A stretch of DNA of 64,000 nucleotides from a virus (IMGVR_UViG_3300013426_000017:96001-160000), one strand, 5' to 3'; counted from the stretch's first letter, positions 1 to 64,000 are shown. Notes: generated from the letters alone by a model not told the origin. Numbers and translations: made by a program.

Positions 1-1
1 T

Positions 2-544
2 GTAGATAGGGTTCTCAATTCTATTGAGGGCGCAAGAAACTGTGAGCTAGAAAAATTTATCTGTGGCTTGGGGATCCCGCTGGTTGGCGCCACATACTCA
101 AGAGAGATTTGCAAGCATTTCGCCACTTGGGAAGAATTTGTAGCGGCCGCAGAAGATGAATCCTATAATTTTGCCGAATGGGATGGCTTTGGTATTGAAA
201 CCAATACCGCTCTACATAATTATGATTATACTGAAGCAAAAGAAATTTATGAAAATTACTTGACAAATACTATAAAAAATAGTATAATAAATCAAGAAAG
301 TAAAGATAGTCTATCTGGCGAAGTGATAGTTATAACTGGCGGTTTAACACATTTTGCTAATAGGGTAGAATTACAAAATAAGATTGCAGAATTGGGCGGG
401 CGTAGTTCGACAAGCGTATCTGGCAAGACAACGATGCTAATATGCAATGATATTAATTCTAAGTCTAGTAAGGTTGTAAAAGCGCAGCAACTAAACATCC
501 CGATTCTCACAGAAGAAAATTTTATACGAGATTATTTGACATAA
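2..544 (+). CDS. ligA: NAD-dependent DNA ligase, C-terminal part (HhH + BRCT), 5'-truncated by window
   Basis: Frame open from nt 2; LGIPLVG HhH motif and BRCT-like VITGGL...SVSGKTTMLI...SSKVVKAQQLNIPI. Confidence 0.85.
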   Translation, partial: VDRVLNSIEGARNCELEKFICGLGIPLVGATYSREICKHFATWEEFVAAAEDESYNFAEWDGFGIETNTALHNYDYTEAKEIYENYLTNTIKNSIINQESKDSLSGEVIVITGGLTHFANRVELQNKIAELGGRSSTSVSGKTTMLICNDINSKSSKVVKAQQLNIPILTEENFIRDYLT

Positions 545-564
545 ATTAAAATATATTATATAAT
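536..564 (+). promoter_or_regulatory. sigma70/sigmaA-type promoter
   Basis: TTGACA-N17-TATAAT. Confidence 0.75.
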
Positions 565-587
565 AATCTTGTAAATAAAGGAAAGTT

Positions 588-788
588 ATGAAAAAGAAAG
601 AATTAAAAAATTTCGCAAAAAAGATTGCTAGTTGGGAATACTTGTGTCAAACTAGCACCGATAGCAAAGAAATAGCAAGGGCTTAGGGTGAAATTATGAA
701 GATGGCGAATCATATTGGATGTATCGAGGAGCTTGAAGAAATAGACATAATGGTTCAAGAGATTCTTGCTAAAGAGTATGGTATGTGA
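588..788 (+). CDS. Hypothetical protein, 66 aa, one internal TAG
   Basis: RBS AAAGGA, ATG at 588, reads through GCT TAG GGT to TGA at 786-788. Confidence 0.6.
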
Positions 789-797
789 AAAAATTTC

Positions 798-826
798 TTG
801 ACATTTCAAAAATTTTTTTGTATAAT
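798..826 (+). promoter_or_regulatory. sigma70/sigmaA-type promoter
   Basis: TTGACA-N17-TATAAT upstream of the 892 ORF. Confidence 0.8.
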
Positions 827-1161: not shown

Positions 1162-1179
1162 TTTAATTTGATTAAGTTT

Positions 1180-2332: not shown

Positions 2333-2689
2333 ATGAAAAATGAATTTCTAAATTTTATTAACAAATTAATGGAAGCGTCACCCGAAATAGTAGATGAGTA
2401 TATGACAGATAGCATTAAAGAGTATTTGGAAATGCTCAAAAATGATAAAGATAAAAAGCCTGAGATAACTGAGACAGGCAGAAAGATTTTGGAGTTTTTC
2501 CAGAATCCTGATACGCCGTCAAAGCTATGGAAGGCCAAAGAAATAGCGCAGGAATTGGGATTGACCTCAAGGGGTGTTTCAGGCTCGATGCGAAAGCTTG
2601 TTAACGATGGTTTTTGTGAGAAGTTGGGAGCATCACCGGCGGTTTATGCCATTACTGATAAAGGAACAATGTATAAATTTAATGATTAA
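2333..2689 (+). CDS. Winged-helix DNA-binding protein
   Basis: KAKEIAQELGLTSRGVSGSMRKLVNDGF wHTH pattern. Confidence 0.7.
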   Translation: MKNEFLNFINKLMEASPEIVDEYMTDSIKEYLEMLKNDKDKKPEITETGRKILEFFQNPDTPSKLWKAKEIAQELGLTSRGVSGSMRKLVNDGFCEKLGASPAVYAITDKGTMYKFND

Positions 2690-2704: not shown

Positions 2705-3685
2705 ATGAAAGCTAATTTTCTAAACACCACCCATGTAGAAGGACTGTTGTATGACCACAATCTTGAGATGAAGGTAACTGGCGAAAATTCCAAGCATCCT
2801 GGCACTCAGTATATTCGTGGCGACATTAGCATTGTCACTGATAGCAAGCTGATGAATGTAGTTCAGGTTTATTATTCTTATGTCACTGAGACTACTTCTT
2901 CTGGCAAGACTGATAGCCGTTGGTCGGCATTGATGGATATTATCAATGGTAAGCGTAAGACTGTTGTTGCTAATGGCGCAGATCAGGCATCCATAATTCG
3001 TATTGACTCGGTAATTGGTTTTAATGAGTTTTATGCCGATAGCCGCGAGAATCCTGGCACTCAGGAGCTTGTTAGCGTCAAGCGTAATGAAGGTGGTTTT
3101 ATCCATTTTGATGGCACTGGCGAGAATAATCTGTTGCTTGCCGATGAGCACAAGCGCGCCACGTTTAAGAATGATATAGTAATTACCAGCGTTGTTGAGC
3201 GTGAAGCCAATGAGGAACGCAACCTCCCCGCTAAGGCAGTTATTAAGGGCTGGATATTTGATTTCCGTAAGGCGATTTATCCTGTTGAGTTTTCCGCAAT
3301 TGAGCCTAACGCCATGAATTATTTCCTGAGCCTTGAAGCGTCTCCTAAGAATCCCGTTGTTACTCAAGTTTGGGGTGAGCAGGTTTCTGAGACCACTATT
3401 CGTAAGATAGTAACTGAGTCTGCTTTTGGCCCTGATGATATACGCGAGGTTTCCTCGACTCGCAAGGATTTTGTTATTACTGGCGCATCTCGTGAGCCTG
3501 GCGTATGGGATGATGAGTCTTGGATTACCGCCGCGGAATTTAATAAGGCCATGAGCGATCGTGAGGTCTATCTGGCGACTATTAAGAAGCGCGCCGATGA
3601 TTATAAGGCTAGCCGCGCCAAGGCATCTCAGGCATCCGCATTTAGCGCAGGTGGCGCCCCCACCGCTGGCGAGTTTAAATTTTAA
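2705..3685 (+). CDS. Putative single-stranded DNA-binding protein
   Basis: Beta-rich 326-aa protein with flexible tail ending in F, directly upstream of the AAA ATPase; function inferred from context. Confidence 0.45.
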   Translation: MKANFLNTTHVEGLLYDHNLEMKVTGENSKHPGTQYIRGDISIVTDSKLMNVVQVYYSYVTETTSSGKTDSRWSALMDIINGKRKTVVANGADQASIIRIDSVIGFNEFYADSRENPGTQELVSVKRNEGGFIHFDGTGENNLLLADEHKRATFKNDIVITSVVEREANEERNLPAKAVIKGWIFDFRKAIYPVEFSAIEPNAMNYFLSLEASPKNPVVTQVWGEQVSETTIRKIVTESAFGPDDIREVSSTRKDFVITGASREPGVWDDESWITAAEFNKAMSDREVYLATIKKRADDYKASRAKASQASAFSAGGAPTAGEFKF

Positions 3686-3738: not shown

Positions 3739-5830
3739 ATGGCAATTAATTTGTTAAACATACAGCCGCATAAGGTGTCTCGTGATTTGAGCGGTTATAT
3801 TACTTACTTGTTTGGAATTCCCAAAATTGGAAAGACTACATTCGGCTCACAACTTCCCGGTTCATTGATTCTTGCGTCAGACTAAAAACTTTTAAACAAC
3901 TAAATAAGGAGCAAACATGAATAATTTATATACTATTACACGTATAAATGGCGGTGTAATCGCTTGGACAGACGAACAAGTGGCCTACATTATTGATAAA
4001 TATTTAAACGAGAATTATACGTTAAAACAGCTTGGCCGAGAATTTGGTTGTAGCTATGGAACCATTCGTAATCTATTAAATAAACATCATATTGATAGCC
4101 GTGGCAATAAGCAGGGCTATCCTAGGAATGAATTTATTTTTATGAATATTGATACAGCTGAGAAGGCCTATTGGCTAGGGTTCTTGTATGCTGATGGTTG
4201 TGTTCATAATAACAACAATGAAATTTCAATCAATATCACGGATCAAGAACATGTGGTTAAATTTAAAAATTTTTTAGGAGCTAAAAATCATCGTATTACA
4301 GAAACAAAAGATACTCGTTGGAAGAATGCTAAAATTTTATATCAATTTAGTATTAAAGATACGCAAATACACAATGATTTAATTACTTGGGGATGTGTGT
4401 CTAATAAAACATTAATTATTGAAAAAATCCCTAATATTCCTAGAGATTATATCTCACATTTTATTAGAGGGTATTTCGATGGAGATGGTAGTTTGCATTA
4501 TTTGCAAAGCACAGATAATTATCGCATTTCATTTACCAGTGGTTCTAAAAAATTTCTAGAGGACATTCAAAAAGAATTAAATATAACCAATTTGTCCTTA
4601 GGTCATTCTGATGATACCAATACCTATCAGCTTCAAATTAGTGGTCGCAAACAAGTAGAAAGAATTTTAAATTATATGTATCAAGATTCTACAGAGAATA
4701 CTCGTTTAAATAGAAAATATAATTCTTATTTAGATTGTTTAAAATGGGCGCATCGCCATTGAACCTATAAATGTAGGGTGTGAATAAATATTTATTTATT
4801 TGCTAACAGGGAATGCTATATGGGGATTTATCCAACCTATATAGAGAATCCTGTGCCAAGTCTCAAATTGAGAAAGGTGCAACGACTATCCCTTCTAGGG
4901 AGTAGGCTAAATGTGAAATTCATTTGGCCCAAGTGGTGGCGGAGCTTATAAAAAAGCTCGTGATATAGTCTTAATTTTTTTAAATTAGTCGAAAGAGGAT
5001 ACAATAGTCTACCTGGCGTTATGGTTCAAGATATTACTTCGTGGGGCGAGCTGCGCCAAGTCATGCGTGAGCTCAAAAAGCCCGAAGTCCATGAGGTATA
5101 TAAAAGTATTATCATTGATACTGTTGATGTGGCAGCTACTATGTGTGAAAAATATATTTGTAACCAATTAGGTATTGAAAACATAGGCGACGGTGGTTGG
5201 ACCAATAATGGCTGGTCTAAGTATAAAAAAGAATTTGAAGATACATTTCGTTCTATGGCGCAGATGGGATATGCGATTGTATTTATTAGCCATTCAACTG
5301 ATAAAACATTTACTCGCAAAGATGGCACTACTTATAATCAGCTGGTTCCAACTTGCCAGCGTTCCGTTAATGAAATAGTAAAGGGCATGGCTGATATTTT
5401 TGCATGTGCTGATATAGTTAATGGCGAACGGAAGTTGATTCTGCGTTCCCTTGATGGCACTGTTGACTGTGGCTGTCGTTTTAAGTATATAGATCCTGAA
5501 ATTCCGTTCTCTTATCAGTCGCTTGTTGACGCATTGAATCGTGCTATTGATAAAGAAGCTGGTGAGACTGGTGGCCAGTTTGTAACTAATGAGCGTCGAG
5601 TAGAAAATATAGCACCTAGCTATGATTATGATACTCTCATGGCCGAATTCCAGACCCTTGCTGGTGAATTGACAAGTAAGAATGGCGCATTCTATGGGCC
5701 TAAAATTGTTCAGATTATTGATAAGTATTTGGGCAAGGGTAAGAAGATTACTGATACAACACCTGATCAGGCCGAATTTGTTTATTTGATCATCTCTGAA
5801 ATTAAAGAAGATTTGGTAGACAAAACCTAA
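3739..5830 (+). CDS. AAA_24/Sak4-like ATPase, spliced: exons 3739-3877 and 4989-5830 (326 aa)
   Basis: Walker A GIPKIGKT in exon 1, Walker B IIIDT in exon 2; splicing restores LILA-F-ERGYN. Confidence 0.85.
3878..4988 (+). mobile_element. Group I intron in the AAA ATPase gene
   Basis: Exon ends in T and intron ends in G; core elements GCTAACAGGGAA, AATCCTGTGCCAAG, CAACGACTA, GATATAGTC at 4802-4970. Confidence 0.9.
3917..4762 (+). CDS. Intron-encoded LAGLIDADG homing endonuclease with N-terminal HTH
   Basis: AYWLGFLYADG and FIRGYFDGDG motifs. Confidence 0.9.
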   Translation: MNNLYTITRINGGVIAWTDEQVAYIIDKYLNENYTLKQLGREFGCSYGTIRNLLNKHHIDSRGNKQGYPRNEFIFMNIDTAEKAYWLGFLYADGCVHNNNNEISINITDQEHVVKFKNFLGAKNHRITETKDTRWKNAKILYQFSIKDTQIHNDLITWGCVSNKTLIIEKIPNIPRDYISHFIRGYFDGDGSLHYLQSTDNYRISFTSGSKKFLEDIQKELNITNLSLGHSDDTNTYQLQISGRKQVERILNYMYQDSTENTRLNRKYNSYLDCLKWAHRH

Positions 5831-8493: not shown

Positions 8494-9603
8494 ATGATTA
8501 AATATGACAAAGTTGAAGTAAGAGAAAAGTTAACAATTGAACAGGTTTTTGAATTATTAACTGACTGGGGTGGAGAACCTATTTATTCACCTTCTGGTAT
8601 CATTGCTTCAACCATTTGTCATAATATACCTGGCGCTGGCAGTAAAAAGCTATACTATTATAGCTCAAATCAAATGTTTCATTGCTATACTGGATGTGAA
8701 AAATCTAGTTTTGATATTTTTGAATTATTTATAAAAATATCAGCTATACAATATAATCAAGAAGTTGATTTTGATAAAGCTGTTCGTTATATAGCAAATA
8801 GATTTCAATTATTCTCCTATGCTGAGGATACTGGCTTAGATGATAAACTCAAAGACGAAGAAATATTTGCTAATTATGATAGAATACAGCAAATTACATT
8901 GCCACCAAAAAAAGAAATCATACTTAAAGAATATGATTCTAAAATATTAGACCATTTAAATTATAATGTAAAGCTTGAGCCCTGGCTTCAAGATGGTATC
9001 TCTCAAGAAGCCATAGAACAGGCAAGAATAGGATTTTATCCCAAAGATTTACAAATTACTATTCCTCATTATGATGTTAATGGACGATTTATTGGGCTGC
9101 GTGGTCGATGCATTGCCAAAGAGGATGCTGAAAAGTTTGGCAAATACAGACCCGTATTTATCAATAGGCAATGGTATAATCATCCACTAGGTATGAATTT
9201 ATACAATTTAAATAAAAGTAAGAAACATATTGCCGAATTTGAAAAGGCTATTGTATTTGAGGGAGAGAAATCGCCATTGCAATATCAAACTATTTATGGA
9301 ATGGACAGAGACATTACTGTAGCTAGTTGTGGCAATAATCTATCTCAATATCAAGTAGATTTGCTAGTTGAAGCTGGCGCCAAAGAAATTATTCTTGCCT
9401 ATGACAGACAATTTGAAGAATATAATAGTGAAGAATATAATAAATGGAAAAGGCATTTGATTGCCTTGCATCAACGATATAAATATGATGCATTAATTAC
9501 AATCATATTCGATAGGAATATGATTACTAATTATAAATCCTCACCAATAGATGAGGGTCAAGAGAAATTTGAAACATTATTTAAAGAAAGGATTGTATTG
9601 TAA
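8494..9603 (+). CDS. dnaG: DNA primase (Zn-finger + TOPRIM)
   Basis: ICHN...FHCYTGC zinc site; IGLRGR; VFEGEKS; ILAYD. Confidence 0.85.
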   Translation: MIKYDKVEVREKLTIEQVFELLTDWGGEPIYSPSGIIASTICHNIPGAGSKKLYYYSSNQMFHCYTGCEKSSFDIFELFIKISAIQYNQEVDFDKAVRYIANRFQLFSYAEDTGLDDKLKDEEIFANYDRIQQITLPPKKEIILKEYDSKILDHLNYNVKLEPWLQDGISQEAIEQARIGFYPKDLQITIPHYDVNGRFIGLRGRCIAKEDAEKFGKYRPVFINRQWYNHPLGMNLYNLNKSKKHIAEFEKAIVFEGEKSPLQYQTIYGMDRDITVASCGNNLSQYQVDLLVEAGAKEIILAYDRQFEEYNSEEYNKWKRHLIALHQRYKYDALITIIFDRNMITNYKSSPIDEGQEKFETLFKERIVL

Positions 9604-11346
9604 TTGTAGTATAAATTAATTAATGAACGAGATAATTCATTAACACCAATAGCACAAATATTTAAAAATCGTGGAATGGATTATACTATAGAGGATATAT
9701 ATCATTATTTAAATACTACAGAAAATGATACATATCCTTCAACTATGCTCAAGAATATGGAGCGTGGCGCCGCCATGCTAGCGCGCCACATAGCCAATGA
9801 CGATAAAGTCCTGCTAGTAGTCGATGATGATTGCGATGGATTCACTTCGTCAGCATTACTTATGAATTATTTACATCTATTATTTCCCCACTTCGTGGAA
9901 AATAGTATTCAATATTACATCCATGAAGGGAAAAAGCATGGTATATTAAATGCAGATGTGGCGGCGCCAGGTATAGCGCTCGTCATAGCGCCAGACTCAA
10001 GTAGTAATGAATATGCGCTTCATGAGGAATTGGCGCAACGAAATATAGACGTTTTAATTTTAGATCATCACAAAGCTCCATATTATTCTCAGCATGCTTG
10101 TGTAATTAATAATCAATTAGACGATTACCCTACTAAATCCTTATCGGGTGTAGGCATTGTTTATAAATTTTGCAAGTATTTAGATGAACAATTAGATGTT
10201 GAATATGCTGATTTATTTTTGGATTTGGTTGCACTTGGTATTACTGCTGATGTAATGAGTATGTGCGATTATGAAACTAGATATTTAGTATCTAATGGTC
10301 TTGAGCATTTTAGAAATCCTCTAATCAAAGCATTATATGCTAAAACAGAATATTCGATTAATAAAAGTGGTGGGTTGTCGCCTTATAATTTAGCTTATTA
10401 TATTGCGCCATTTCTCAATGCCACTGCTCGGGTAGGGACAGTAAAAGAAAAAACCATATTATTTGAATCACTGCTTGAATTTAAAGCCTATGACCAGATT
10501 ACTTCAACAAAACGAGGCTGCGCTGGCCAAATGGAAAGCATCGTAGAACAAGCCGCTCGAAATTGCACGAATATCAAGTCACGCCAAACTAAAGAGCGCG
10601 ATACAGCTTATGAGCAAATAGAATCAATGATTGCAGAGCAAAATTTGCTTCAAAATAAAATTCTACTTATTCAAATGGATAGCGGAGAGCCTGCGATTGG
10701 TGGCCTTATAGCCAACCTATTGGTCGCCAAGTATCATCATCCAACATTAATTCTTTATAAGATGGGTGATATGTGGCAAGGTTCAGCACGTAATGATTCA
10801 AGATATGGATTAGAGGATTTTAGACAATTTATGCGAGATTGTGATTTAGTGAATTTTGCCGAAGGGCATGAATCTGCTTTTGGCACGCAAATCGCGAATG
10901 AAAATATAGATAAGTTTATAGAATATAGTAATAAGGCATTACAGAATTATGAATTTTCCCCAGTTGATCGTGTTGATTTTATTATTAATGCCAATCAACT
11001 AACATCTGAATTTATTTTGGATATAGGAAAATTACATTATATTTGGGGGCAAGAAGTATCTGAACCTTTAATAGCAATAGAACATATTGCTATTACTAAC
11101 GATAATTTAAATGTTATTGGCAAAAAAGAAGATACGGTTAAAATAATGCTACCAAATGGTATTAGCCTTATGAAATTTGGGTCTACCGCAGATGAAATTG
11201 ATGCACTGGCCCCTGAAACGTCTGCGGGGTGTGTAATAATTAACATTCTTGGTATGTGTAATATTAATAACTACAACGACCAAGAATATCCACAAATAAT
11301 AATTAATGAATACGAAATTGTAGGACGGCAGAGCTACTATTTCTAA
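9604..11346 (+). CDS. recJ: RecJ-like DHH ssDNA exonuclease; start TTG at 9604 with TAG as codon 2
   Basis: DDDCDG, LDHH, GSAR, GHESAFG; in-frame extension M(TAG)YKLINE...IFKNRG follows RBS GAAAGGA. Confidence 0.85.
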
Positions 11347-12258: not shown

Positions 12259-12349
12259 CATAGCTGATTGCGCGGGCTACGAGCGCCAGTATCGTGGCGC
12301 CGCCACAAAAGTGCCTAGGGGAATTTTAAGACCAAATGTTCTATTTAGA

Positions 12350-12608: not shown

Positions 12609-12910
12609 TGGCTGACTTAGAAGTAGCTGTTAAAACTGATGAAATTTTTGACCGGTTAATAAAAAATATTAATGAAGCACAAGATACATTTGATGAATAT
12701 ACTAATAACTATAAGGGTTATATGTATGACAGTTTATGTTACCGTTATCAGTTAGCTCGTTATAAAGCTTGTGAAGCAGATGCTATAGATTTAGTTATGA
12801 CAAAAGGAATTTCTAAACGAGAAGCAGAGACTAAGGCATACCAAGCATATGAAAGAGATTGCTTACGATTCTGTCAAATTCTAGATGAAGCGATAGGTGA
12901 ACACAATTGA
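12608..12910 (+). CDS. Hypothetical protein
   Basis: GGAGG RBS; overlapping stop/start with neighbours. Confidence 0.7.
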   Translation: MADLEVAVKTDEIFDRLIKNINEAQDTFDEYTNNYKGYMYDSLCYRYQLARYKACEADAIDLVMTKGISKREAETKAYQAYERDCLRFCQILDEAIGEHN

Positions 12911-15201
12911 TTTTAACAGAAAAACAACAGAAAGGATTGGACTTGGCCGTAGCCCGCTACAATGAGCACAAAGCTTATACTTGTATAGCGGGCTACGCAG
13001 GTAGCGGAAAAGCTCAACCAGTTGATACTATTATACCAACGCCCAATGGGAATATAGAATTAGGACAACTCAAAATAGGCGACTATGTTTTTGACAGATT
13101 AGGTAAACCTACAAAAATCTTAAATATATACCCGCAAGGAACAAAAGAAAAGTATAAAATAATTTTGTCCGACGGAAGAGAAACTATTTGTGCGAGTGAC
13201 CATCTATGGAGTTATTATACAAATAGTGGAAAATTGGTTTCTAAAACAGCTCAAGAAATGCTTGATAGCGGGTTAAGGAAACGCAATGGGTTTAAATATA
13301 AAATTCCAACCAGTGAGCCAGTTCAATATTCTACGAAGCAATATGAGATTGACCCTTATTTAATGGGTGTTTTTATAGGAGACGGCTGTTGCAAACAAAG
13401 ATATTTGACAATTTCCTCAGAAACGGATGAAATCCCAAATTTAATAGGAGAAATAATTGACGCAAAACCTATAAGAGGAACGGAAAAGAATTATAGCTGG
13501 ACTTTTGAATGGAATAATAAAGCAGAAACAATTAATTGGGTCTGTGGTAATAATGGACAACGAGTCGCTAAGAGAAAGAAACCAAAAACCTTAGATTATT
13601 TTGCAAAATATAAAGACTATTTAATGCAATATGCCTATGAGAAAGATATACCGCCCGAATACAAATTTGGAGATATTGACCAACGTTTATCTTTAATTCA
13701 AGGTTTGATGGATACTGATGGCACCATTAATAGCGTAGATAACCATCGTTATAATATGAGATTTACATCAACCAGCTTAAAATTAATTAAAAGCTTACAA
13801 GAAATTTTATTTAGTTTAGGATATTCTTCTACAATTCACATAGACAAAAGAGAAAAAAAATATACTAATAAGATTTGTTATAATTTAGGAATTAATATCC
13901 CCAACGAAGAGAAACACAAGTTTTTTAGGCTAAAACGAAAAAAAGATATAGCACTAGAGGCTCAAAAATATCCGAAACAAAAAGACTATAGTAGAATTTC
14001 TATTGTCGATATAGTACCTCTAAAAGAAAAAACAGAAATGATTTGTATATATGTAGACAATCCAGAACATCTATATTTAACAAATGATTATATTGTCACT
14101 CATAATACAACATTAGTAAAATTTATTATTAAAGCACTTGGTGTCCCGAATAGCCAAGTAGCCTATGTCGCTTATACTGGTAAAGCAGCAGCAGTATTAC
14201 AAGCCAAAGGCAACCCAAATGCAACAACTGTTCATAAGTTAATTTATCATGCATACCCTACCAAGACCGGAAAGTATAAATTTCGGCCTAAGCTAACATT
14301 AGATGATGCGTATAAGGTATTAGTTGTAGATGAGGTATCTATGTTGCCTAAGTCCATGTGGGATTTATTGTTATCCTATAAAGTTTATGTCTTGGCTTGC
14401 GGCGACCCCGGCCAGTTGCCTAGCTTATTTAAAAATGAACGCAATGACATTCTTGACCATCCCCATATTTTTCTTGATGAAATTATGAGACAAGCGCAAG
14501 ATAGTGAGATTATTAGATTATCTATGCATGTCAGAGAAGGGAAGCCAATATCAACATTTGATTGTAAAAACGAGCAGGTTCAAATTGTTCATCGAAATGA
14601 AATGCAAAGCGGGATGTATACTTGGGCCGATCAAGTTATATGTGCTACCAATAAAACTCGCAATTTTATTAATAAGCTTGTTCGAGAGTATAAAGGACTC
14701 GATCCAAATAAACCATGTGTAGGCGATAGGATTATCGGCTTACATAACGACTGGGATACCTTGTCTGATAATGGCGAATGGGCATTAACCAATGGAACCA
14801 TTGGGACAATATTAGGTTATGAGGTTGAAAACCAATGGGTCACGCCACGTCTCAAACTGCCTATCAAAGATATAGATATAGCATATACTGATTTTGAATT
14901 AGATGATGGTAGCGTATTTTCTGAAATCCCAATTGATTATCAGGGTTTGGCAACGGGAGAATTGGTTTTAGATGATTTGGCTCGGTATAGAATGGCCAAT
15001 TGGGAACAAAGTAATTTATATCCGCCCCATGATTTTGTTTATGCTTATGCAATTACTTGTTGGAAAGCACAAGGTAGTGAATATAATAAAGTGTTGCTAA
15101 TTGAAGAAGACCATCCATTTGATAAACTTGAACATATCCAGTATTTATATACGGGTATCACTCGAGCCAAGGACAAACTAGTAGTAGTAATTAAAGATTA
15201 A
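12907..15201 (+). CDS. RecD/Dda-like SF1B helicase, intein-containing
   Basis: GYAGSGK/TT Walker A split by intein; VVDEVSM, GDPGQL, AITCWKAQGSE, YTGITRA. Confidence 0.9.
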   Translation: MILTEKQQKGLDLAVARYNEHKAYTCIAGYAGSGKAQPVDTIIPTPNGNIELGQLKIGDYVFDRLGKPTKILNIYPQGTKEKYKIILSDGRETICASDHLWSYYTNSGKLVSKTAQEMLDSGLRKRNGFKYKIPTSEPVQYSTKQYEIDPYLMGVFIGDGCCKQRYLTISSETDEIPNLIGEIIDAKPIRGTEKNYSWTFEWNNKAETINWVCGNNGQRVAKRKKPKTLDYFAKYKDYLMQYAYEKDIPPEYKFGDIDQRLSLIQGLMDTDGTINSVDNHRYNMRFTSTSLKLIKSLQEILFSLGYSSTIHIDKREKKYTNKICYNLGINIPNEEKHKFFRLKRKKDIALEAQKYPKQKDYSRISIVDIVPLKEKTEMICIYVDNPEHLYLTNDYIVTHNTTLVKFIIKALGVPNSQVAYVAYTGKAAAVLQAKGNPNATTVHKLIYHAYPTKTGKYKFRPKLTLDDAYKVLVVDEVSMLPKSMWDLLLSYKVYVLACGDPGQLPSLFKNERNDILDHPHIFLDEIMRQAQDSEIIRLSMHVREGKPISTFDCKNEQVQIVHRNEMQSGMYTWADQVICATNKTRNFINKLVREYKGLDPNKPCVGDRIIGLHNDWDTLSDNGEWALTNGTIGTILGYEVENQWVTPRLKLPIKDIDIAYTDFELDDGSVFSEIPIDYQGLATGELVLDDLARYRMANWEQSNLYPPHDFVYAYAITCWKAQGSEYNKVLLIEEDHPFDKLEHIQYLYTGITRAKDKLVVVIKD
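13012..14106 (+). mobile_element. Intein (365 aa, Ala1, class 3-like) with LAGLIDADG domain
   Basis: AQPVDT...DHLW...MICIYV...IVTHN/T; MGVFIGDG and LIQGLMDTDG. Confidence 0.9.
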
Positions 15202-15245
15202 GTGGCGGCCCCCGCTCAACCGGGCAAGTAATCTGGCGGCGCCAC

Positions 15246-15274
15246 TTGACATAGGCAAAAATATATGTTATAAT
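15246..15274 (+). promoter_or_regulatory. sigmaA-type promoter for dnaE
   Basis: TTGACA-N17-TATAAT with TG. Confidence 0.8.
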
Positions 15275-44431: not shown

Positions 44432-44449
44432 ATTACATCCTCCTTTAGC

Positions 44450-50400: not shown

Positions 50401-52276
50401 CATAAGTTGGAATAGTATTATCTGTTAAACGCAATTTTGGCAATATCATTGCCAAATAAGCATCATAACTTGAATAGCCCGTGGCACGTTGTGCTAAAAA
50501 TTGCTCAAACACTTCATCATCTTTCCATCCTCTATTGATATTGCTATCACTAGGATTATCAACTACTTGGTATCGAGTATATGTAGTAATAATCTTATCA
50601 TAATTTTGAATATTACTAATTTTCATTTTAAACTCTATGGTATGAGAAGACTTATTCTATCCTGCAAACGCCATAGAGCCAATAGGAAATGATACAGAAG
50701 CGCCGTTGCTAATTCTTAAACAGGTTGGACTATTATCTTCCATAATCCAACCATTGTTATACCAGTTAAAATTAGATAATGTTGCTTTTGAATCACGAAT
50801 CTCAATTACAGAACGCTTTTTCGCTGACTCAGAATTAGAACGACCACGAGCATCAAAATTAACAATGGCACCATCTACAATTCCCATATGTCTTTCATCT
50901 GGCAAAACTGTAAATTCAGGAACTCGCTCCATGGCTTCATGTTCACCATCGCCGACACGAATTTGATATACTGTTGTTTGACCAGCAACCAAATTAGTTA
51001 ACTCCCAAATTTCATAAGCAGTTTTATCTCTATCAACTGCACGGCCATCCTCGCCAGACACGTTCTTACTATTTTCATATAAGTATAAATGCATTACACT
51101 ATTGTTAGGGTCATAAGCACGAATTGGAATAGCAGGTGTATCAAATTCATAATATGTTTTTTTAACATCACCGAACCAAATCAAAGGCTCTTGCTCATTA
51201 AGATACAATCCTACTTCTCGCGTGATTACATCAGTGCCACTGCCACGAGTGCCATCAGATTTTACTAAACTTAATTTAGCTGAAATTGTGTGGCGACCAT
51301 GATTATAACTCGCTCCCAAGGCCACTCCTGTAGATTCATGCGTATCATAATCCACAATTTCACTTGCAGCACGCACATTTATCTCAACGTCGGTAGTTTT
51401 CTCATTCTCCATTTTACTATATATCAAATAGTCATCAAAATAGATATCTAATATTCTACGTGAACCGCCAAGGATTTGAACTGCAACAGTAAAATTATCG
51501 CGGAAATATGATAAATTAGTAAATCGACTATTTATCCAGCTAATATCCATTGCATAAGTGGTCACATTACGAGAAACTTGGCCACCACCTACAAAGATGT
51601 TACCAGGACTACCTGATAAAACAAACATTAAATCTGTTGAAGTGGACTGGCGCAAATGTTCAGGCTTATAAATTAATGTTTGGCCATGCGCAACCTTAAT
51701 CACTTCAGTATAATAAGGCTCAGTATCTTTAGCTGCCATATAAGTAATAGTCAACTTCATGTCTTCTGGATCAATTGGTTGGCCATCTTCAGTGGCTGAA
51801 GTTGCTGTAATACTGAAGGAGCACTCTTCGCCATTCAACAATTCAGTCTCACCTAAACTAGTAACAACTAAGCGACCGCGCACTTTTGAGCTGCCGTCAT
51901 TGCCGCTACCAGCTAGCGCCAAACGATATACGGATAGCGAACCGTCTTCTTCATAACCCAATACTCTATAAAAACATTGGTCAGACTCGTTAATAACCAA
52001 ATCGTCTTTTCGGGGCTAAATGATGTAATTTGCAAAAATTTCAGCGGGATTCATAATACTCATTTCGCCAGTGTTATCACCCAGCTCACTTGAGTCGAAA
52101 CTAGCATAAAAAATACCAGTATTTCCGCCACCCATTAAAATAAATTCATTGCCATCACTATAATAAATTTTATGAGTATCAATAGCAAACCACACTTTGC
52201 CCTCATCAGGTGGCTCATTAAAAATAGAATCCTCTTTACCACGAATCGGTATAAATGGAACTTTACTATTTAGCAT
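44450..52276 (-). CDS. Giant (2608 aa) virion protein with LamG-like, CotH-kinase-like and BspA-type LRR regions
   Basis: One frame across >20 TAG with no TAA/TGA seen; QGTSS.YYPRRNYK, FTLKVDYMESS, DSRGKN, WYPIFYDMDT; IDTGAF...IGAFAF. Confidence 0.8.
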
Positions 52277-52300
52277 AAACCTTCTCCTTTCTATCCTTAT

Positions 52301-52335
52301 AATAAAAAATCGGGACAAGGAAAAATCCTTGTCCC
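52301..52335 (-). terminator. Intrinsic terminator-like hairpin
   Basis: GGGACAAGGA/TCCTTGTCCC plus T-run on the minus strand. Confidence 0.75.
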
Positions 52336-52399
52336 AATCGAAAATTTTCCTCATAGAATTTTAAATAATTCTATAAATTAATTAATGTGTTTTGTCCAA

Positions 52400-54700
52400 T
52401 TATGTGAAATCATCCCATACTAAATCAATTAAATAACTTACGTCAGTATCTGAAGCAGACGTATTAGAAATAGTTAAGTTCGAAGAAGTTAATGAATAAT
52501 TAAACGAATTTCGTTCCTTAGTATTAATCTTTAATGCTTGGTGGAATTTTAATACATTATTCTCTAATGTGCTAGAAAGAGTGTAGTCAATTACTTGCTC
52601 TGTAGGCAGGGTTAACTCATGTGCCCCAATGCTAGTTACATGACCAGCTTTATCAACTTGTACCACAGGAACAGAGAATGAGCCATTAAATCCTAAATTA
52701 GAATCTTCGCTTGGGCCATAAGCCACACTATCATTTAACGAATCTTTTGTAGTATGGGCAAACTCAATTTTCTTATCTTTAGCATCATCAGCACTGGTCT
52801 TAATAGTTATATATTTGTCACCAGTTAATGAAATCAAATCTTGCTCACTAGCATTCGACCACAAAGCCAATGCAGTATTCTCATTACTCGTAGTTAATTT
52901 ATAAGTAGTATTATTGTTTTCATATTCTGGCAACTGGACAGTATTTGTATGCACATTAGTGATATGGCCTTGCGCATCATAAACGACAACCGGAATTTTA
53001 AATGTTCCCTCAGCCTGTGGAGTTTGAGCATCATCAAGACTCGATCCTGCTGCAATTGTATTTGTATGGCCAATGGAAAATACGGCCTTATTGCTTCCAT
53101 CAGGCTGCGCCACATCCACAGAAGAAACTTTTAAGCCATCACTAATTTGAATAGGCTCGCCATCTTTATCAGCGGTCAAATTATGTAAAATAATATTACT
53201 ATTTGCTACATCCGCACGTAAGGCGTATTGAGTATCAATCTCATCACCAGATGGAATAATATCAAAATCAGTATAGGCAGGCGCTTCATTTTCGCCCTTA
53301 TCCGCGCCCTTATAAATTACCAAATCGCCAGCATCAATCGAAATATTAATTTGTGTGCCAGGTGGCGTGTAAATAAATGATTCAGCTGCTTTATAGGTAT
53401 CACCAGTTTGAATACCACCCAAACCATCAGGGAATTGATCTTGAGTTAAGACACCCTTATAGGTCATAGCGTCCATGTCTGCCTTAGCCTTAACAATTAA
53501 CGCATCAACGGCCTTTTTAGAATAAATCTCGCCTAACGAGCCCTGATTATTAATTGTTTTTAAATTATGACCATTTTCGGCATCATCATATATATCCGCT
53601 GTAAATCCAATACTTGCGGCAGGAATGGTTGCTTCTTCATTCTCTTTATCGCTACCATTTTGCTAATGTTTCAAGGTTAATTGAATATTACCAGATTCAT
53701 CTACTGCGCCAGTGTGTGAGCCAAATTGATAAGTATGAACCGTATCGGGAATATCTAATTGGGTAGACTTGGCATTTGAAATATGGCCCTGAGAATCTAC
53801 AGTAAACTGAGGCACAGTAAGAGCGCCTGACTTAAATGTAGCTTCATATTCTTGTGCCGTGACTCCAGAATCCTTGTGACCAATCTTAATTGAATTAATT
53901 TCCTCGGTAGCGATTTCGATTTGGTCTATACCCTCTATAGATACCACATCTTCACTACCGCCACCTTGAGGCTTTAATTTAATCGTACTAATATTATTGG
54001 ATACTGGTGCTTCAAGGTCATATTTAGTATCTGTCGCACCAATAACAAAAATATTATCGTTTACAGTGTCCTTTTTAACAGATACACTTCCGCTACCTTT
54101 AATAGTAACATTTTGGTCGCTATTAGCACCGCTACCCTCTGCACTTAAAACAAGGCCGTCTTTTTCTGCGGTCTCAGTCGCCGCTACACCAACAGAAACA
54201 TTTGTAACTATTGAAGTTAAATCGTTCTGTGAAATGGTTAATTGTCCAGTAGCAGAATGAGACTTTTCTGTATCTTTATTGCTAAGAGCATTCCACTCAT
54301 GGCTTGTTATATTAATATCATAAACCAATTGGTCGTTGTTGGACTTAGTGTTCTTGTTTACGGTAATACTTTCAATACGGGTATCTGTATCTTGATTCGT
54401 ATCAGGGTTTATTTGCACCCACTCACCATCAGGTTTGGCATTAGTTTTAGCGAAAGTACATAAAATATTCTTATCGCTTAAATAATAAAACTGACCCTCA
54501 ACCTTGGGGACAGTAGAATTCTCACGAAACACTTCATCATAAGTATAAAATTTAATGCTTTGATTCAGCAATTCAAGTTTATTATTCGCGCCACCAACGT
54601 ATAGTCTATTAGTATCAGTGGTTAAATAAAAAGCACCATCTACAATATTACTGCTAGGCAAATTCGCTTGTAGACCGCGTTTAAAACTTACACTTGCCAT
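52400..54700 (-). CDS. Tail fibre protein, 766 aa, one TAG
   Basis: FKRG.Q..L...DGAFYLTTD..RLY; three VDxxGH(I/V)-type repeats; AMTYKG. Confidence 0.75.
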
Positions 54701-55502: not shown

Positions 55503-57584
55503 TTAACTAGTTTCGGCCTATTTGTTTTCTAATGAATTAAATACGAGTGGCTACAATGTTCGACTATATGATGCAATTTTCTATAGTGGTTTTATTCGCT
55601 TTAACTCAGGACCGTCATCATCCACTTTATAATAAATATAATATTGAGTTAGTTGCGTGTTATCTTCACTGGCTTTAATATAGGCAAAACCATTTGAATC
55701 ACCCTTGCGAGCACGAATTACTGGTGCTTCGTCACTTATCAAGTCTGCTGGCACATTTATCGAAATACTGCTCAAGCTTGTATAATGTCGACCTTGATAT
55801 TCGTAATACAAAAATGCATCACCATAATCAGCGTTAGTATCAAAATTCGATGGGGAATATTTATAAACACCATCAGAATCCGCAATAAACCAATATTTCT
55901 TTGTGCCAATCCAATATACAATTGCTTTATAATCTTTTTCGGCCTTAATCGTAATATTATCTTTATAATAAACAATATCATAATAGTTATCCTATGACTT
56001 GGATGTTAGTTGATTGCCCAATGATTGCCATGTGGAAGAAGCCCAGCCAACTGGCGCCGCCACATTACTTGCACTAGGAAATACTAACTTATTTGCAAAT
56101 TGATTTTCGAATGTTAAGGGCTGCGTAGAACCAGATGAGAGGCTAAAACTATTAAAGCTCTATGGTAATAAGCCTTTATAATTATCCACAAATGAAAAAT
56201 AATTCTCATAAGTCACAAACGAATCACTTGTGATCCAATCACTACTGGCCCCAGCATAATTACTTTTAGCTAATAGTGTTGTGCCGCCAACAAACGTCTA
56301 CAATTTAATTTTATACACTGGCATCGTTACGATAGTATGCTAATCATTATCCATACTAATAATACTCTTTATCGAACTATTTGGAATCGCTACCTAACTA
56401 CCAAATTTGTCTCTGTAGTTAGAACCGGTATATAATGAATTCCAACTAATAGTTCCACCAGTATTAGTTGCTAAATCAATACTGCGATCATCTAATGCAA
56501 TTAACTAAACAGAATAAGTATTAGCTGCTGCATTAAAAAACGTAACATTGTCGGTTCCTCGACCAGACAAGCGATATGTGAAATATTTAGTACTATCACG
56601 TTCCGATTGATAAGGACCATGCAACATATGCCAAGCATCGCCTTGCTAAACATACAATAAACGCCTTTTCAGATTCTCGTCCTCTATCATTGATTTAGGC
56701 ACATCAATACTCATACCGCTGTAACCATGAGGACCTTGAAATGCATGTGTGTATCGAGTCGCGTAGTCATAAGGTGCCATTAATATTGTATCTTCCGTAG
56801 GGACAAAATGATCTAATAGTGCCCCTATTGGATACAAATCAGTATCTTTAGTAACATTTATAGTGGCGCCGGGCGCTATGCGTTCGCTATCCGGTCGTCT
56901 ATATAATTTATCACTCGGTTTAGTTGCCCAAGTTACAAAATATGCACTTTGATTTTTCCAGTGTTCTTTAAGTGTCGTGCCAGCAATCTTATAACTAGCA
57001 GGATCGATCGCTTTATAGCTACCTGGCACAACCTCCTGAGTAACCATAGGCTCTAAACCATTAAATTGCATATATCGCAACTTTAACGCTGAAGTATCAT
57101 AATCTAACCAAATTTCAGGATACCAACTAGTTGTAATAGATAACTAACACTCAATAGCATTGGGCGAATATAAACAAATATAATAGGTCTTGCCTGGTTC
57201 AACTACAGTATTAAATGTAACGTTCACAGTAGTCTCACCATCTAATTTATCTATTAGATGAGTAGCTTCTGTCAAATATTGGTTATTATTGCCTATAGTG
57301 CGCCAACCAACTGGGGTGTCATTCGAGGGCGCTGCCTCACATAAAAATCCTTTAAGACTACCAGAACCAAGCCATGTTCCTTGCAAACGTAGCCATAAAG
57401 AACGAACCTTTGTAATTCTTACCCCATTAGCACTATTAGGCACATTAAATCTAAACACACCAACAGTGTAAGCACCATTTTTATAGCCAATTGGGCTGGC
57501 GCTTGTAGAAAAACTACTCGTGCCAAACTAATGCTCATAATTAGGAACCCTACTGTGGGACCAACCAGCTTGAGTCCAACTCAT
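55503..57584 (-). CDS. Hypothetical virion protein, ~693 aa in code 15
   Basis: Continuous frame across about a dozen TAG, joining three track ORFs. Confidence 0.65.
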
Positions 57585-59010: not shown

Positions 59011-59026
59011 AACGCCTTTACCTCCT

Positions 59027-61435
59027 TTAATAAATTGTATTTACGACTTTTGTCGCAGTTATTGACATCGTTCCATTATAGGTTAATGGAACAGTTAATT
59101 TACCTACTAAATAATCTCCATTAATACCTCTATCATTATCCACAATTTCAATCTTGGTATTTACATCTAAATAATAAATTGGAATTGAGGTAATAGATAT
59201 ACTTTCTGAAATAAATGCATTATCATTTAATAATGTAGTTAATGCTTCTTTCGCGTTTTTTCCCATTGATGAGACCTTGAACATTTCTTCCATAGAGCGA
59301 TTGATTAATAGAGGAGTATAACCAGTCATTGTCTTATTATAATCTTCATCTATAAATACAAATAAAACGTTCGGAGCTTCCTCATAATATATAGATTTTA
59401 CTTTTGCATCATTAACAGCTTTTGCCCTATCCCCTAAACGTTGGATAGAGAATTTTGCCATCTCGCCTTCATCGCAAAAATCTAACCAATAGTTAATAGC
59501 AGTTGGATTATCAAATACATCAACATGCCATTTTGCAGCAGACTAATTCTATTTCTTAATCGGACAATAATAGGTCGTTTTTGACTCGTAACCCTAGTCC
59601 GCCCCTACTCGAATGTAATTAGCGCCAAGGTCTTCGGTATTTACCGTATATAATTGGTTCTTGCGCTCATTAAAATTATCAGCAGTTACTTCCGCACGTT
59701 CCATCACCCACTCATCTTCTGGGAGATAGATCTAGCGCCAAAATGCTTGCATATCTTGATAGAATGGTTCATAGCCTGTATAACCAGTAGGATAATAGTC
59801 AGGATTAGCTTGCGCCACTCGCGCCAAGAAATCATCCTCTTGATTACAATGATAATAATCTTCTGCCATTTGATAAATCAATTCACGCCAATCATAACCG
59901 TCATTACCAGCTATTTCATTACTTTTATATGTGGTGCCGCCAGGTCGTATGGACGTATAAACCTGCGGTTTCTCAGAAATGGCGAACCTATAATGAACAG
60001 GCACATTGCTACCATTCACACTTGGTCTTGTTCCCCAGACCGAATAATCATTTTTAATCTTTGTAATCTGAGGAGTGATAGACATTTGCGTAAACAATTC
60101 ACTATTCTAGTAGTTATAACTTTGTAATTGCTGCATTAGCTCGGTATTAAAAATAATGTCTGACTTTAATACGCCATTAACATTCCGTTCGGAGCGCTTT
60201 GAGGCGACCGTCGCCAGCCCTAATGCTTCAGTCTAGATTTGTGACCTTTTCTTCTAGAATATAAAATGTCCATCAAGGTCATAGAAATATTCATAGTTAC
60301 CAAATGTTTTAGTAATATTATCTAAAATGCTTGTAATAGAGGCGCCAACTACGCCTTTTAAATCGCCAGGATAAACCAATGGCGTAGCATGATAACCAAT
60401 CAAATCACCATAGGAAAATTTCATCAAGAACAATGCATCAGTATTATCAAATGGGTCAGCTACTAGACTAAATTCATTGAAATCACTACCAGCATCTAAG
60501 GTATTTAATACCAAGAATTTAAAATTTTCATTCTGGCTTAATGAGTATAATGTGGCGCCTTCCTCATTAATACGCTCGTAAGTTCCCGTAGCGTCATCCC
60601 ATTGAACAGGAAACACAACCATTTCATCATCCAGCACTAAGTTCTCAACCTCATTGGTTGATTTACGAACAAGCATATACATAGTCTTATCGCCACGATA
60701 CTCCCATAACTCAACGCCATTCTAATCAATATCTTGAATAATAATATTATGATATGGCTCATTACCGTAAACATGAACTAACTCTTTAATAATGTCGCCA
60801 ATCCAAATCTTCGTCTGAGTTGAATTCATAATCTGCTCATAATAGGTAATATCTTCAAGCCATCCGTCGCCAGACGACTCATCTAATATATAATCATCGC
60901 CAGATGCAACATAATACTCACCAGGTCGCCATGTCTCAGAATTAACCTCTATTGGTTCGTAGGAATAGCTAATTTCTTCCACCTTATCAAAATCAATTGA
61001 TAAAGCGGGGAGCGCGCCACCTACATCGCCATTCAGCAAGCACATCTTATCCTTGCCTTGTAGGTTAATAGTGTAACCATTAGTTGAGATAGATGAACTA
61101 TAACTAGTGCATACATAAATACCTTGCTTAAACCAGATTATTTGCGGCGCGCCCTGGTTCTTGTCCGTCCCAAAAAATGGATTCTCAAGGCCAACTTCAA
61201 AACTAAACTTGCTATGTATGCCCCATTGATAGGCTGATGTGTCTAATACCGAGGACACCATGCTAAATGAGCAAGAGCGCCGAACTGCCGAGGCCCCATC
61301 AACATTAATGGAGCCTGACGTGATTCGACCTTCAATCGTCTCAATGGGCGATTCATCTAAATTTAATAAAATTACCCTAGCATATACAGTATGTAACCGA
61401 TGCTTAATAACTTCATTTAAAAAATCATAATTCAA
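59027..61435 (-). CDS. Tail/baseplate hub-like protein, 802 aa in code 15
   Basis: IEGRITSGSINVDG.SAVRR.C; DKMCLLNG; YFYDLDG.FIF(TAG)KK; IKNDY.VWG; IPIYYLD.N. Confidence 0.75.
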
Positions 61436-61449
61436 ACGAATTCGCCTCC

Positions 61450-63999
61450 TTAACTATTCTCAAGAATTTTCTTCAATGTCAACTCGTACTGCGCTTTAGC
61501 AAAATCATATCGGCGCTCAAGAACAATACGCTGCGCATACCAGTTCATGTATTCTTGTGTAAAACCGTTCTCATCTACAAAGTTCTCATTATACTTCTGG
61601 TCGCGGTAGTTCAACAACTCAGTAGTGGCTTGAGTAAATGCATCTTTGGCCTCTTGCAAACTTTCATCAGCAATCATTTCTTCAGTAAGATAAATATTCT
61701 CAATCTACTCATAGCCCATTTCCATATAGACACCTGCGCCCAAATTGATTTCCTTAATCTCCTGAGTGCCATTAATCTCCAGAATCTTCTCTGATGCTAC
61801 CATAAATTGACTCGAATCACCAGACTTGTATTTAATAACTACATTTCTATAGCCAACAGGTAATTCCTCATCGGGCAAGGTGGTTGTAGAAAATTCAAAA
61901 TTACCCGTGCCTTTACGATACACATAGGATAAATCAAGTAATTGATTCTATCTCAAACCATTAGTATCAGACTTTTTAATGAGATACAACGGCAAGCGGG
62001 ATATATAAGGGAATATCAACGACGCCATGTTCGGCACATTAATGCCATAACCATTAGCAGTATTCCAAGACCGATAAATGCCAGACCTTGTGGCCGTTAC
62101 ATACTCAACCGGACGTGGTATGAATCGTAGATATTTAACCGCTGATATTGATTCTTTAATATGATTACTTGCATCGCCAGGAGTCAGTAATGGGTTAGAA
62201 ACAAAATCACCAACTACAGTTGCATGGCCCAAAACCGCTTGTGTGGGGCATTGGGTAATACCTACATCCTTAATCTAATCAAATGTCGTAGCTTGATAAG
62301 TTTTATAGGATATGGTAATTGTGCCATGGCTCGGCGCATTCTGAGTCGGCAAGCCAATAGTATTACAAGTGACTCCGTAGGGTAACTCATATTTACCTGT
62401 GGCGCCGATGGCTACGGGGCGATTATCTATTAATATATAACTATTAATATTGGCGGGGTATGCTTCTACTCTGACCGACTGGATACCGACACCCAAGTCG
62501 CCAAATAAATCAGCCTTGCCCCAATCGGCTTCTGTAAATGCATAGGATGATTGCACGAATACCGATTCTGATATATCGCTATCGCTCTCCATAATTTGGT
62601 AATTCGTCAAATTAGTATTATTACACGCTGCTACTTCATAGGCTGTGCATGTGAATGTATGTAACATACGACTTAGCTTATCTTCTGGCGACAATGAGAT
62701 ATTCATTAATCTCACAATATAATTACCTTCGGCCGGTGAGCGGAACAACTTGGGTTTGCCATTAGTCAGCCAATCAAGAACAGCAAGTTTAAATTCGCGC
62801 TCGGCCTTTATATTTTCATCCACTAAATCTGTGGCGCTGTAGCTTGGTATTTCCTCAAGCGCCGGCTGCGCCACGCCAAATTTATCATTCTCTAATCTCG
62901 ATATTAATCCTGAGATAGGGAACTCTTTATACGATACCGAGCCATTGCGGAAAATAAATGGATACTTACCGCCTATGGTATCAGTCTTACTCTCTAATAC
63001 ATCCTATTTAAACGAAGATACTTTGGGGTTGTAGCGCACTCTTAACTGGCGCTCACCGTCGCTTAGAAAGGTGTCCTCAAAATTAGCAGTAATATATTTC
63101 TCGCCATCCTCAGTAGTTGCATAGATAGGTTGAGAATATATACCAGCTTGATTAATCCTCTCCAATACATATTGATACTTAATACCATGCTCAATAGTAT
63201 TATCAATATATGGATTTGTCTCAATCAAATCAACGCCAAGATTAACTCGCTTCAGTTTTTCTTTAATGGTCTTACCATCTGCTTCATGCAAACGAGACAA
63301 AATAAATGTTCCCTGCTAGAATATTGCATCAGGTGAGCTAAAGGTCAGCGCCACACAACCATTATCTAAATCAGGCTTAATAATGAAATTGACATTTACA
63401 TCACCAAGGTCTAGATAATTATTACGAGTAATCTTATACTGAGGAGACTACAACTTCAATCCACTCATGGTCTCGACACTATACTGGACAGTATATATCT
63501 TACCTCGTTCAATTGAGATTGGATAGCTATAATTATCAATGCTGATTAATTGACCATCGGCAATTCTTGTATCAGATTCGTTATTATGCACTTGATCAAC
63601 CACTGAATCTACTATATTGCCGTTTTCGTCACATATAACAAAACTATACTTTTTAATACGCTCGGTCAAATCCGAGTTCTCATACTGGCCTACGAACTCA
63701 CCATTGCGACTAGATATTTTATAATCCAATAAATTCTATATCTTAATAGTAGGGATACCTGTATATTTAATAACCGCTGTAATCGAATAGTATCCAACTA
63801 CTGGATAGGTATCATCTACCTTAACACTCTTATAGGCTGAGCTAATAGAATCCTCAACCAGCGATATGAGATGCGACTTGATCTCTGTAAATTTCTCAAC
63901 ACTTGAACCAGCCATAATACTACATAAGTCAGTATATGATTTCACAAAGCTAGAACTTGCCTTAGATATATCCGCATCATTAGTCATATTAGCAACTTC
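61450..63999 (-). CDS. Large tail-associated protein, 5'-truncated, about 850 aa visible in code 15
   Basis: Seven track ORFs joined in frame across TAG; DTIGGKYPF, KEFPISGLIS, KPKLFRSP.EGN. Confidence 0.75.
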
Positions 64000-64000
64000 T

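Follow-up and report, generated by a model that had tools for sequence, protein, structure and literature searches.

The DNA analysed here, referred to as the window, is a 64,000-nucleotide stretch (bases 96,001–160,000) of the 175,406-bp IMG/VR virus record IMGVR_UViG_3300013426_000017, which derives from an uncultured phage. It is densely written with an asymmetric GC-rich word whose core is TGGCG and whose preferred form is (T)GTGGCG(C), at about 2.4 copies per kb on each strand. The excess of this word resides in the DNA itself and not in the encoded proteins, and the frequent palindrome GGCGCC is made where the word on one strand overlaps or abuts the word on the other. The GC content is 36.3% in the window and 37.4% in the whole record, for which CheckV estimates a completeness of 96%. 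The record itself is denoted G0 (or G000), its sister genome G1 (G001) and a 98.7-kb relative G2 (G002).

GGCGCC occurs 42 times in the window, compared with 2.3 expected from base composition, 5.1 from an order-1 Markov model and 11.1 from an order-2 model. In the whole record there are 112 copies, with 16.2 expected (order-1 model). The first-pass annotation, made from the sequence by eye, had put the number at roughly 40 against one or two expected, and the positions that it named (86, 1968, 2059, 7070, 9376, 11436, 20423, 28295, 40763, 56865 and 62401) are correct within 1 nt. The many half-sites it described amount to 64 TGGCGC and 67 GCGCCA in the window; the record holds 414 TGGCG and 428 CGCCA. 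Sites are present in both transcription arms. They show no regular spacing; the gaps are slightly over-dispersed (coefficient of variation 1.17 versus 0.99) because of word-poor islands. GGCGCC starts at the following positions of the window:

86, 1968, 2059, 2085, 3653, 7070, 8020, 9376, 9766, 9963, 11436, 11976, 12296, 15238
17121, 18170, 20423, 20559, 20739, 22710, 27453, 28295, 28482, 28869, 29348, 29861, 30026, 31890
32458, 34027, 40361, 40763, 42604, 43141, 55090, 56053, 56865, 58771, 58972, 60341, 60554, 62401

The null model was a shuffle of synonymous codons within each gene, keeping the protein and the gene's own codon usage. A dicodon-preserving null fixes in-frame hexamers by construction and is circular; frame and intergenic tests were used in its place. 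In the genes of the window, GGCGCC is found 36 times versus 9.6 ± 2.9 in shuffles (maximum 19 in 300) and GTGGCG 69 times versus 19.7. Over all coding DNA of the genome, the counts are 83 versus 27.7 ± 4.5 for GGCGCC (3.0-fold, z = 12), 196 versus 57.7 for GTGGCG (3.4-fold) and 665 versus 310 for TGGCG (2.2-fold, z = 26). Shuffles of codon order likewise fail to account for the excess. An unbiased ranking of k-mers against the same null places CGCCACA (55 versus 5.6 on the coding strand) and GCGCCACA (33 versus 2.6) at the top, together with CGCCAC, GCGCCA and TGGCG. GTAC (60 versus 274), GATC and ATCGAT are at the bottom, and the usual avoidance of some palindromes therefore coexists with the enrichment of this word. 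The excess holds in all three reading frames and on the sense and antisense strands; in the two frames other than GGC GCC, GGCGCC is seen 20 times versus 4.3 and 8 times versus 3.8. Strict intergenic DNA, defined as the 12 kb outside every open reading frame (ORF) of at least 50 codons under either genetic code, contains 7 GGCGCC (0.6–1.2 expected) and 10 GTGGCG (0.8–1.6 expected).

The counts by frame, strand, arm and intergenic location bear out the claim that the motif occurs in both arms, in several frames and between genes. The excess also outlasts the codon-preserving null under which, according to the first-pass annotation, it might have vanished. That it reflects nothing but Gly-Ala (GGC GCC) or Val-Ala (GTG GCG) codon or dicodon choice is extremely improbable: 55 of the 83 coding GGCGCC do lie in frame as GGC GCC, and GGC makes up 37% of the Gly codons, but an excess of at least 3-fold remains over shuffles that keep proteins and per-gene codon usage, and it extends to the other two frames, the antisense strand and intergenic DNA.

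The palindrome is not the unit. From its own sub-words, a maximal-order Markov model predicts 118 GGCGCC in the record, where 112 are found, so that there is no surplus. The longer perfect palindromes lie below sub-word expectation, with TGGCGCCA found 26 times versus 34–45 (42–45 by orders 4–5) and GTGGCGCCAC once versus 4. The first-pass description of a palindromic motif thus does not hold at this level; GGCGCC, TGGCGCCA and similar strings arise from words on opposite strands that overlap or abut. A surplus over sub-words first appears at GGCG/CGCC (1.6-fold), TGGCG/CGCCA (1.3–1.4-fold) and GTGGC (1.4-fold). Flanking preferences are graded, with T in 60% of the positions before GGCG and C in 39–49% of those after it. 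The strands are balanced (63 TGTGGCG and 61 CGCCACA in the record), and no switch of orientation is found between the arms or along the genome. The first-pass annotation offered a Chi-like signal as one possibility; the strand polarity that would go with it is absent from these counts.

Inverted half-words are enriched at offsets 3 and 6 only. One arrangement does exceed its sub-words, the 11-bp dyad TGGCG-S-CGCCA, with 14 copies versus 1.5–4 in G0 and 12 versus 1.4–3.4 in G1. The copies lie in unrelated genes, where they encode Gly-Gly-Ala, Gly-Ala-Ala or Val-Ala-Ala-Pro, and three are intergenic. Counting any centre base, 11 of 15 aligned dyad sites are kept in G1, sometimes with another central base (e.g., G to C). 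The four inverted pairs noted at first pass are all present: GTGGCGCGCCAC at 11450, GTGGCGCCGCCAC at 12294, GTGGCGTCGCCAC at 27424 and GTGGCGGCGCCAC at 28864. The dyads and the related palindrome of the window are as follows:

9765–9775, dyad TGGCG-C-CGCCA in the RecJ-like gene, kept in G1 and in the relative with 82% RecJ identity
9959–9969, dyad TGGCG-G-CGCCA in the RecJ-like gene, kept in G1 and in the relative with 90% RecJ identity
11450–11461, 12-bp perfect palindrome GTGGCGCGCCAC, two abutting half-words
12295–12305, dyad TGGCG-C-CGCCA, intergenic, the first-pass pair GTGGCGCCGCCAC
15234–15244, dyad TGGCG-G-CGCCA, intergenic, with a TTGACA box immediately downstream; three of the four genomes of the clade keep it, with one arm TAGCG in G1 and the centre C in the 82% relative
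22706–22716, dyad TGGCG-G-CGCCA in the NrdD-like gene
27425–27435, dyad TGGCG-T-CGCCA, the first-pass pair GTGGCGTCGCCAC
28478–28488, dyad TGGCG-G-CGCCA(CAT), identical in G1
28865–28875, dyad (TGT)GGCG-G-CGCC(ACAT), the first-pass pair GTGGCGGCGCCAC, identical in G1
56052–56062, dyad TGGCG-C-CGCCA(CAT) in a late-arm gene

The dyad centre switches between G and C at two sites, between G0 and G1 at G000 position 163309 and between three clade genomes and the 82% relative at window position 15234. Such a switch converts the site into its own reverse complement, and G-to-C changes are usually rare. At G000 163309, located in the late arm outside the window, it replaces Gly with Ala and both arms are kept. 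Sigma-70-like promoters adjoin or enclose two intergenic words. In the first (window 15234–15270), the word is directly upstream of TTGACA; in the second (G000 27380–27420), it is located between TTGACA and TATACT/TATAAT.

The sister genome G1 (174,223 bp, with terminal repeats) has about 84% nucleotide identity to G0 over 76% of the length and contains 109 GGCGCC. Between the two genomes, 63.5% of motif k-mers are conserved, compared with a median of 37.5%, which places them at the 99.7th percentile of all k-mers; neighbours that differ by one base, such as GGTGCC, are among the least conserved. At synonymous sites, 78–90% of the bases inside the word are kept, versus about 50% outside. The third position of GGC is kept before GCC in 42 of 50 cases, compared with 400 of 804 elsewhere (p = 1e-6). 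The effect is similar at four positions and frames besides this one, as for GCC in C|GCC|AC (51 of 62 versus 223 of 431), GTG before GCG (36 of 44 versus 126 of 239) and GCG in G|GCG|CC (18 of 20 versus 211 of 361). Masking any one position of the word leaves a 1.2–2.2-fold excess, and strong depletion of the alternative bases is seen at none of the positions. Transition neighbours are likewise undepleted (GGTGCC 0.83, GACGCC 1.08, AGCGCC 1.51, TGGTG 1.04). The masking and neighbour results indicate a pressure that bears on the word in its entirety; very-short-patch repair would instead act on a single base.

The effect extends to the encoded proteins. In G0 and G1, the dipeptides Trp-Arg (TGG CGC), Val-Ala (GTG GCG) and Ala-Thr (GCC ACA) are over-represented 2.0-, 1.36- and 1.34-fold; the values in G2, which is without the word, are 1.14, 0.96 and 1.03. 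Individual sites turn over while the density of the word is kept: in a 21-kb alignment of the four genomes of the clade, only 4 GGCGCC and 19 TGGCG are at positions common to all.

Long-resident and strain-specific DNA differ in their content of the word. DNA common to G0 and G1 contains 0.78 GGCGCC and 5.6 TGGCG per kb, versus 0.21 and 2.35 per kb in DNA without a counterpart in G1. GTAC shows the reverse, with 0.37 per kb in common DNA and 1.22 per kb in strain-specific DNA, where it is not avoided. The paucity of the word in strain-specific DNA explains an 11.9-kb gap without GGCGCC at 43–55 kb of the window. The features concerned are

44432–54592, word-poor island, mostly without a DNA counterpart in G1
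3917–4762, + strand, LAGLIDADG homing-endonuclease gene, strain-specific, with no GGCGCC, no GTGGCG and two TGGCG
13117–14107, + strand, LAGLIDADG intein in the superfamily 1 (SF1) helicase gene, with no GGCGCC, GTGGCG or TGGCG

The depletion in homing endonucleases and inteins that the first-pass annotation proposed as a check is only partly upheld. It fits the LAGLIDADG gene and the intein; the word is present in both GIY-YIG genes of the window, of which the one at 1737 is conserved throughout the phage family. Taken as a set, the four mobile-type genes of the window have 11 TGGCG with 15.6 expected, which is not significant (P = 0.15). Together, word density and restriction-site avoidance tell DNA long resident in these phages from DNA that is strain-specific.

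Relatives were drawn from Logan and ENA assemblies and graded by RecJ identity. Those with 94%, 90% and 82% identity show both the TGGCG word and GTAC avoidance; those with 61% and 55% show neither, and the TGGCG word is confined to the clade with a RecJ identity of at least 82%. Some 75 further family members (46–53% RecJ identity, 28–41% GC) have no excess of TGGCG or GGCGCC and are enriched instead in TGCGG(C), which appears as GCCGCA, CCGCAG, CCGCAA or GCGGCC. TGCGG(C)/GCCGCA is the word at 61% RecJ identity and below. The enriched word of G2 is TTGCG(S). In the cases tested, each relative's own word exceeds synonymous shuffles 2–9-fold on either strand, and the two strands carry similar absolute numbers of it. 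Relatives that have TGCGG in common differ sharply in the 4-mers they avoid (GATC 0/77, CTAG 0/64, ACGT 0/66, TCGA 0/40, GTAC 6/62) and presumably meet different restriction systems or hosts. That one word is common to such relatives points to a cause intrinsic to the phage family. G2 avoids yet other sites, namely GGCC (1 versus 87 expected), CAATTG, GAATTC and AGTACT.

An even draw of 401 genomes from the Clostridia and 401 from the Bacilli contained none with a comparable density of the extended word. One host candidate, a 54% GC genome of the Clostridia class (G102), had 5794 GGCGCC versus 252 of the control, and was rejected, the excess being 1.8-fold over an order-1 model and 1.0-fold over sub-words. 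This genome avoids CCGCGG about 5–10-fold (46 versus 236–450 expected, two strands, 300 kb), which makes the reversed-pattern control misleading for words of the GGCGCC type, and its excess is an artefact of that avoidance. NrdD relatives in metagenome-assembled genomes (MAGs) proved to be phage-like contigs without the word; the MAG with the best such relative (L104) has three GTGGCGCC in 3.2 Mb. A scan of IMG/VR for the 14-mer ATGTGGCGCCGCCA returned, among the matches listed, mostly GC-rich chance matches and no unrelated phage with a strong signature; one weak case among them (G808) has 9 TGTGGCG in 84 kb. In the literature searched, we found no description of such words in phages.

Our tentative preference, drawn from these comparisons, is that the word is kept by selection and would be read by a factor intrinsic to the phage family. 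The candidate reader is most likely a DNA-reading part of the conserved replication and recombination module. In the clade of the window, its specificity would have shifted to TGGCG from the TGCGG(C) used elsewhere in the family. This role could fall to a primase with the word as its start site, or to a sequence-specific DNA-binding protein with weak affinity for half-sites and strong affinity for the dyad; of the functions suggested at first pass, a binding site for a phage protein is the one we favour. The replication genes are of SPbeta type: YorF-like (window 2705–3685), DnaB-like helicase, primase (8494–9603), RecJ-like exonuclease, a split DnaE-type polymerase, the SF1 helicase with its intein, an AAA_24 protein (5021–5830) and NrdD. 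The AAA_24 family (PF13479) includes Sak4-type recombinases. RecA, RecT and ERF were not found in the record. A small winged-helix protein (window 2333–2689) has helix-turn-helix matches below the Pfam cut-offs. The wider proposition, that a family of large uncultured phages writes a private 5–7-nt GC-rich word on both strands under selection, that a phage protein reads it, and that TGCGG was reassigned to TGGCG in one clade, is possible but more doubtful.

Several observations weigh against selection for a word read by the family's own machinery. No reader protein was identified, and no protein of the module is an outlier in the divergence profile. No strand polarity is seen around an origin, as a strand-specific reader such as a primase might show. 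Little information lies beyond the 5-mer core, an unusual feature in a classical operator. The node at which the word changes is also the one at which GTAC avoidance changes, so that a host switch would fit too, and a host factor from outside the genomes sampled in the two classes may be involved. Selection and a multi-position mutational drive look alike in these data, the only outgroup being 70% identical and too distant to give the polarity of changes.

Error bias of the polymerase was considered as a cause and is unlikely, because the word does not track the N-terminal part of DnaE. This part is 36% identical in the 82% relative (L142), which has the same word, and 71% identical in the 61% relative (L143), which has the other word. 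The polymerase gene is in this sense a mosaic within the phage family. It is located in two ORFs (15400–17181 and 18423–20492), which are separated by a GIY-YIG endonuclease gene (17348–18268).

A by-product of repair or mutation would require no selected function. In the model proposed for highly iterated palindromes (HIPs; Elhai 2015), words of the GGCGCC type arise from near-matches through the joint action of a host methyltransferase and methyl-directed or very-short-patch-like repair. GGCGCC itself is the alternate HIP of Calothrix PCC 7103, linked to GrCGyC methyltransferases (PMC4390886). The words of the phage are GC-only around a CpG and strand-symmetric, the commonest difference between G0 and G1 at the word is TGGCG versus TGGTG (124 cases), and restoring repair would also give high apparent conservation. 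However, the palindrome is not above its own sub-words, the transition neighbours GGTGCC, GACGCC and TGGTG are not depleted, and the excess outlasts the masking of any one position, with several positions favoured, including the flanking T and G. One word is, moreover, common to relatives with different restriction-avoidance profiles. C5, N4/N6 and D12 methyltransferases (PF00145, PF01555, PF02086) and Vsr were not found in the 175-kb record, nor were TGT/DpdA or a ThyA-family hydroxymethylase. The methylation-linked, HIP-type origin raised by the first-pass annotation is therefore not borne out as something the phage encodes, and we regard a repair by-product in general as unlikely.

Recognition of the word by an AddAB/RecBCD-type helicase–nuclease of the host, or by a phage analogue, would protect DNA ends and promote recombination-dependent replication, as Chi does. 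In an otherwise AT-rich genome, the core is a short, asymmetric, GC-rich sequence; it is specific to a lineage, apparently kept by selection and sparse in strain-specific and mobile DNA. The two strands have about the same absolute counts despite differing coding baselines, and the lack of RecA, RecT and ERF genes in the record would also be in keeping with such a role. Chi-rich phages exist among the lambdoids (Bobay et al. 2013, PMC3784561; Zheng et al. 2025, PMC12315714). Against this, strand polarity is absent both over the length of the genome and in the comparison of the arms, no sampled Bacillota genome is enriched for the extended word, and the word is common to relatives with different host signatures. 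The phage also has its own RecJ-like exonuclease, SF1 helicase and AAA_24 protein; in lambdoids, such a module goes with few Chi sites. A Chi-like function is accordingly judged improbable.

A side effect of restriction-site avoidance, by which CpG palindromes are purged and the remaining CpGs pile up in allowed contexts, is very improbable: avoidance is real (GTAC 0.29, GATC 0.37 and ATCGAT 0.14 of expectation by order-1 Markov; CGCG 0.8 and TCGA about 0.74 by synonymous shuffles), but the losses (about 95 TCGA and 43 CGCG) are small compared with gains of 384 GGCG/CGCC and 164 GCGC, and cannot account for a 10-fold 7-mer excess or for conserved dyads.

Some further features of the genome were noted. 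No close cultured phage was found, the best RecJ identity being 36%. With TAG read as a sense codon, ORFs cover 91% of the record instead of 80%; the coverage of the late arm (window 30181–64000; G000 1–20 kb and 130–175 kb) rises from 0.63–0.82 to 0.93–0.99. The RecJ genes of some relatives (L143 and L144) match the database protein only if TAG encodes Gln. The SF1 (Dda/RecD-like) helicase gene is located at window 12907–15201; its LAGLIDADG intein spans approximately residues 71–400 and has no counterpart in G1. The NrdD region (window 21144–25960) is strain-specific relative to G1. Its best relative (86% amino acid identity) is on a 174,861-bp contig in the 'Clostridium sp.' MAG L104; this contig is probably another phage.

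Few genome-wide signals are known in prokaryotes; Chi, uptake sequences, HIP1 and other over-represented short words belong to them, and words of the HIP type are still unexplained after 30 years. The phages described here offer a small viral system (about 175 kb, four sequenced strains at 70–85% nucleotide identity) in which such a word is maintained at the DNA level. Because the palindrome is a by-product of the half-word and sister clades use a different word, the reader should be within reach of simple biochemistry and of a comparison of a few dozen conserved genes. If the proposed reading is true, the word would form a self-marking or initiation code that the virus itself encodes and that can evolve, and it would serve as a tractable model for the unexplained words of the HIP type.

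Four known systems invite comparison. The T7 gp4 primase recognises 5'-(G/T)(G/T)GTC-3'. Like such primase sites, the phage word has five nucleotides, is asymmetric and is present at high density on both strands, and its specificity, if set by a phage replication protein, could drift between clades. Unlike them, it shows no polarity around an origin, and we know of no excess of this size for any primase site.

Cluster O mycobacteriophages reportedly carry dispersed 17-bp dyads that are taken as protein-binding sites. The approximately 14 conserved (ATGT)GGCG-S-CGCC(ACAT) copies scattered through the phage genome resemble these. Most of the copies here, however, are inside genes, some 800 single half-words accompany them, and the core of the half-site is only 5 nt.

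Chi words differ between species, with AGCGG in Bacillus subtilis, GAAGCGG in Staphylococcus aureus, GCGCGTG in Lactococcus lactis and GCTGGTGG in Escherichia coli. The phage word is likewise short, asymmetric, GC-rich, lineage-specific, apparently under selection and richer in long-resident than in strain-specific DNA. It differs from Chi in having no strand polarity, in not being found at a comparable density in the genomes sampled from two candidate host classes and in being far denser than the 8-mer of E. coli; the phage, moreover, encodes an exonuclease, a helicase and an AAA_24 protein as a module of its own.

Of the phenomena described so far, the HIP class comes closest. HIPs occur at about 1000–2000 per Mb (Elhai 2015), and HIP1 (GCGATCGC) of cyanobacteria has been shown to be under selection (Xu et al. 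2018, PMC5861425). The hexamer GGCGCC is the same as the alternate HIP of Calothrix, and its density in the phage (640 per Mb) is of the same order. The phage unit differs in being an asymmetric 5–7-mer, not a palindrome, and in having neither a cognate methyltransferase found in the phage nor the neighbour pattern of the methyl-directed repair model. The resemblance to HIPs extends to an excess that depends neither on codon usage nor on frame and to sites conserved beyond neutral expectation; here, the word is carried by a virus, and it varies among the clades of a single phage family.

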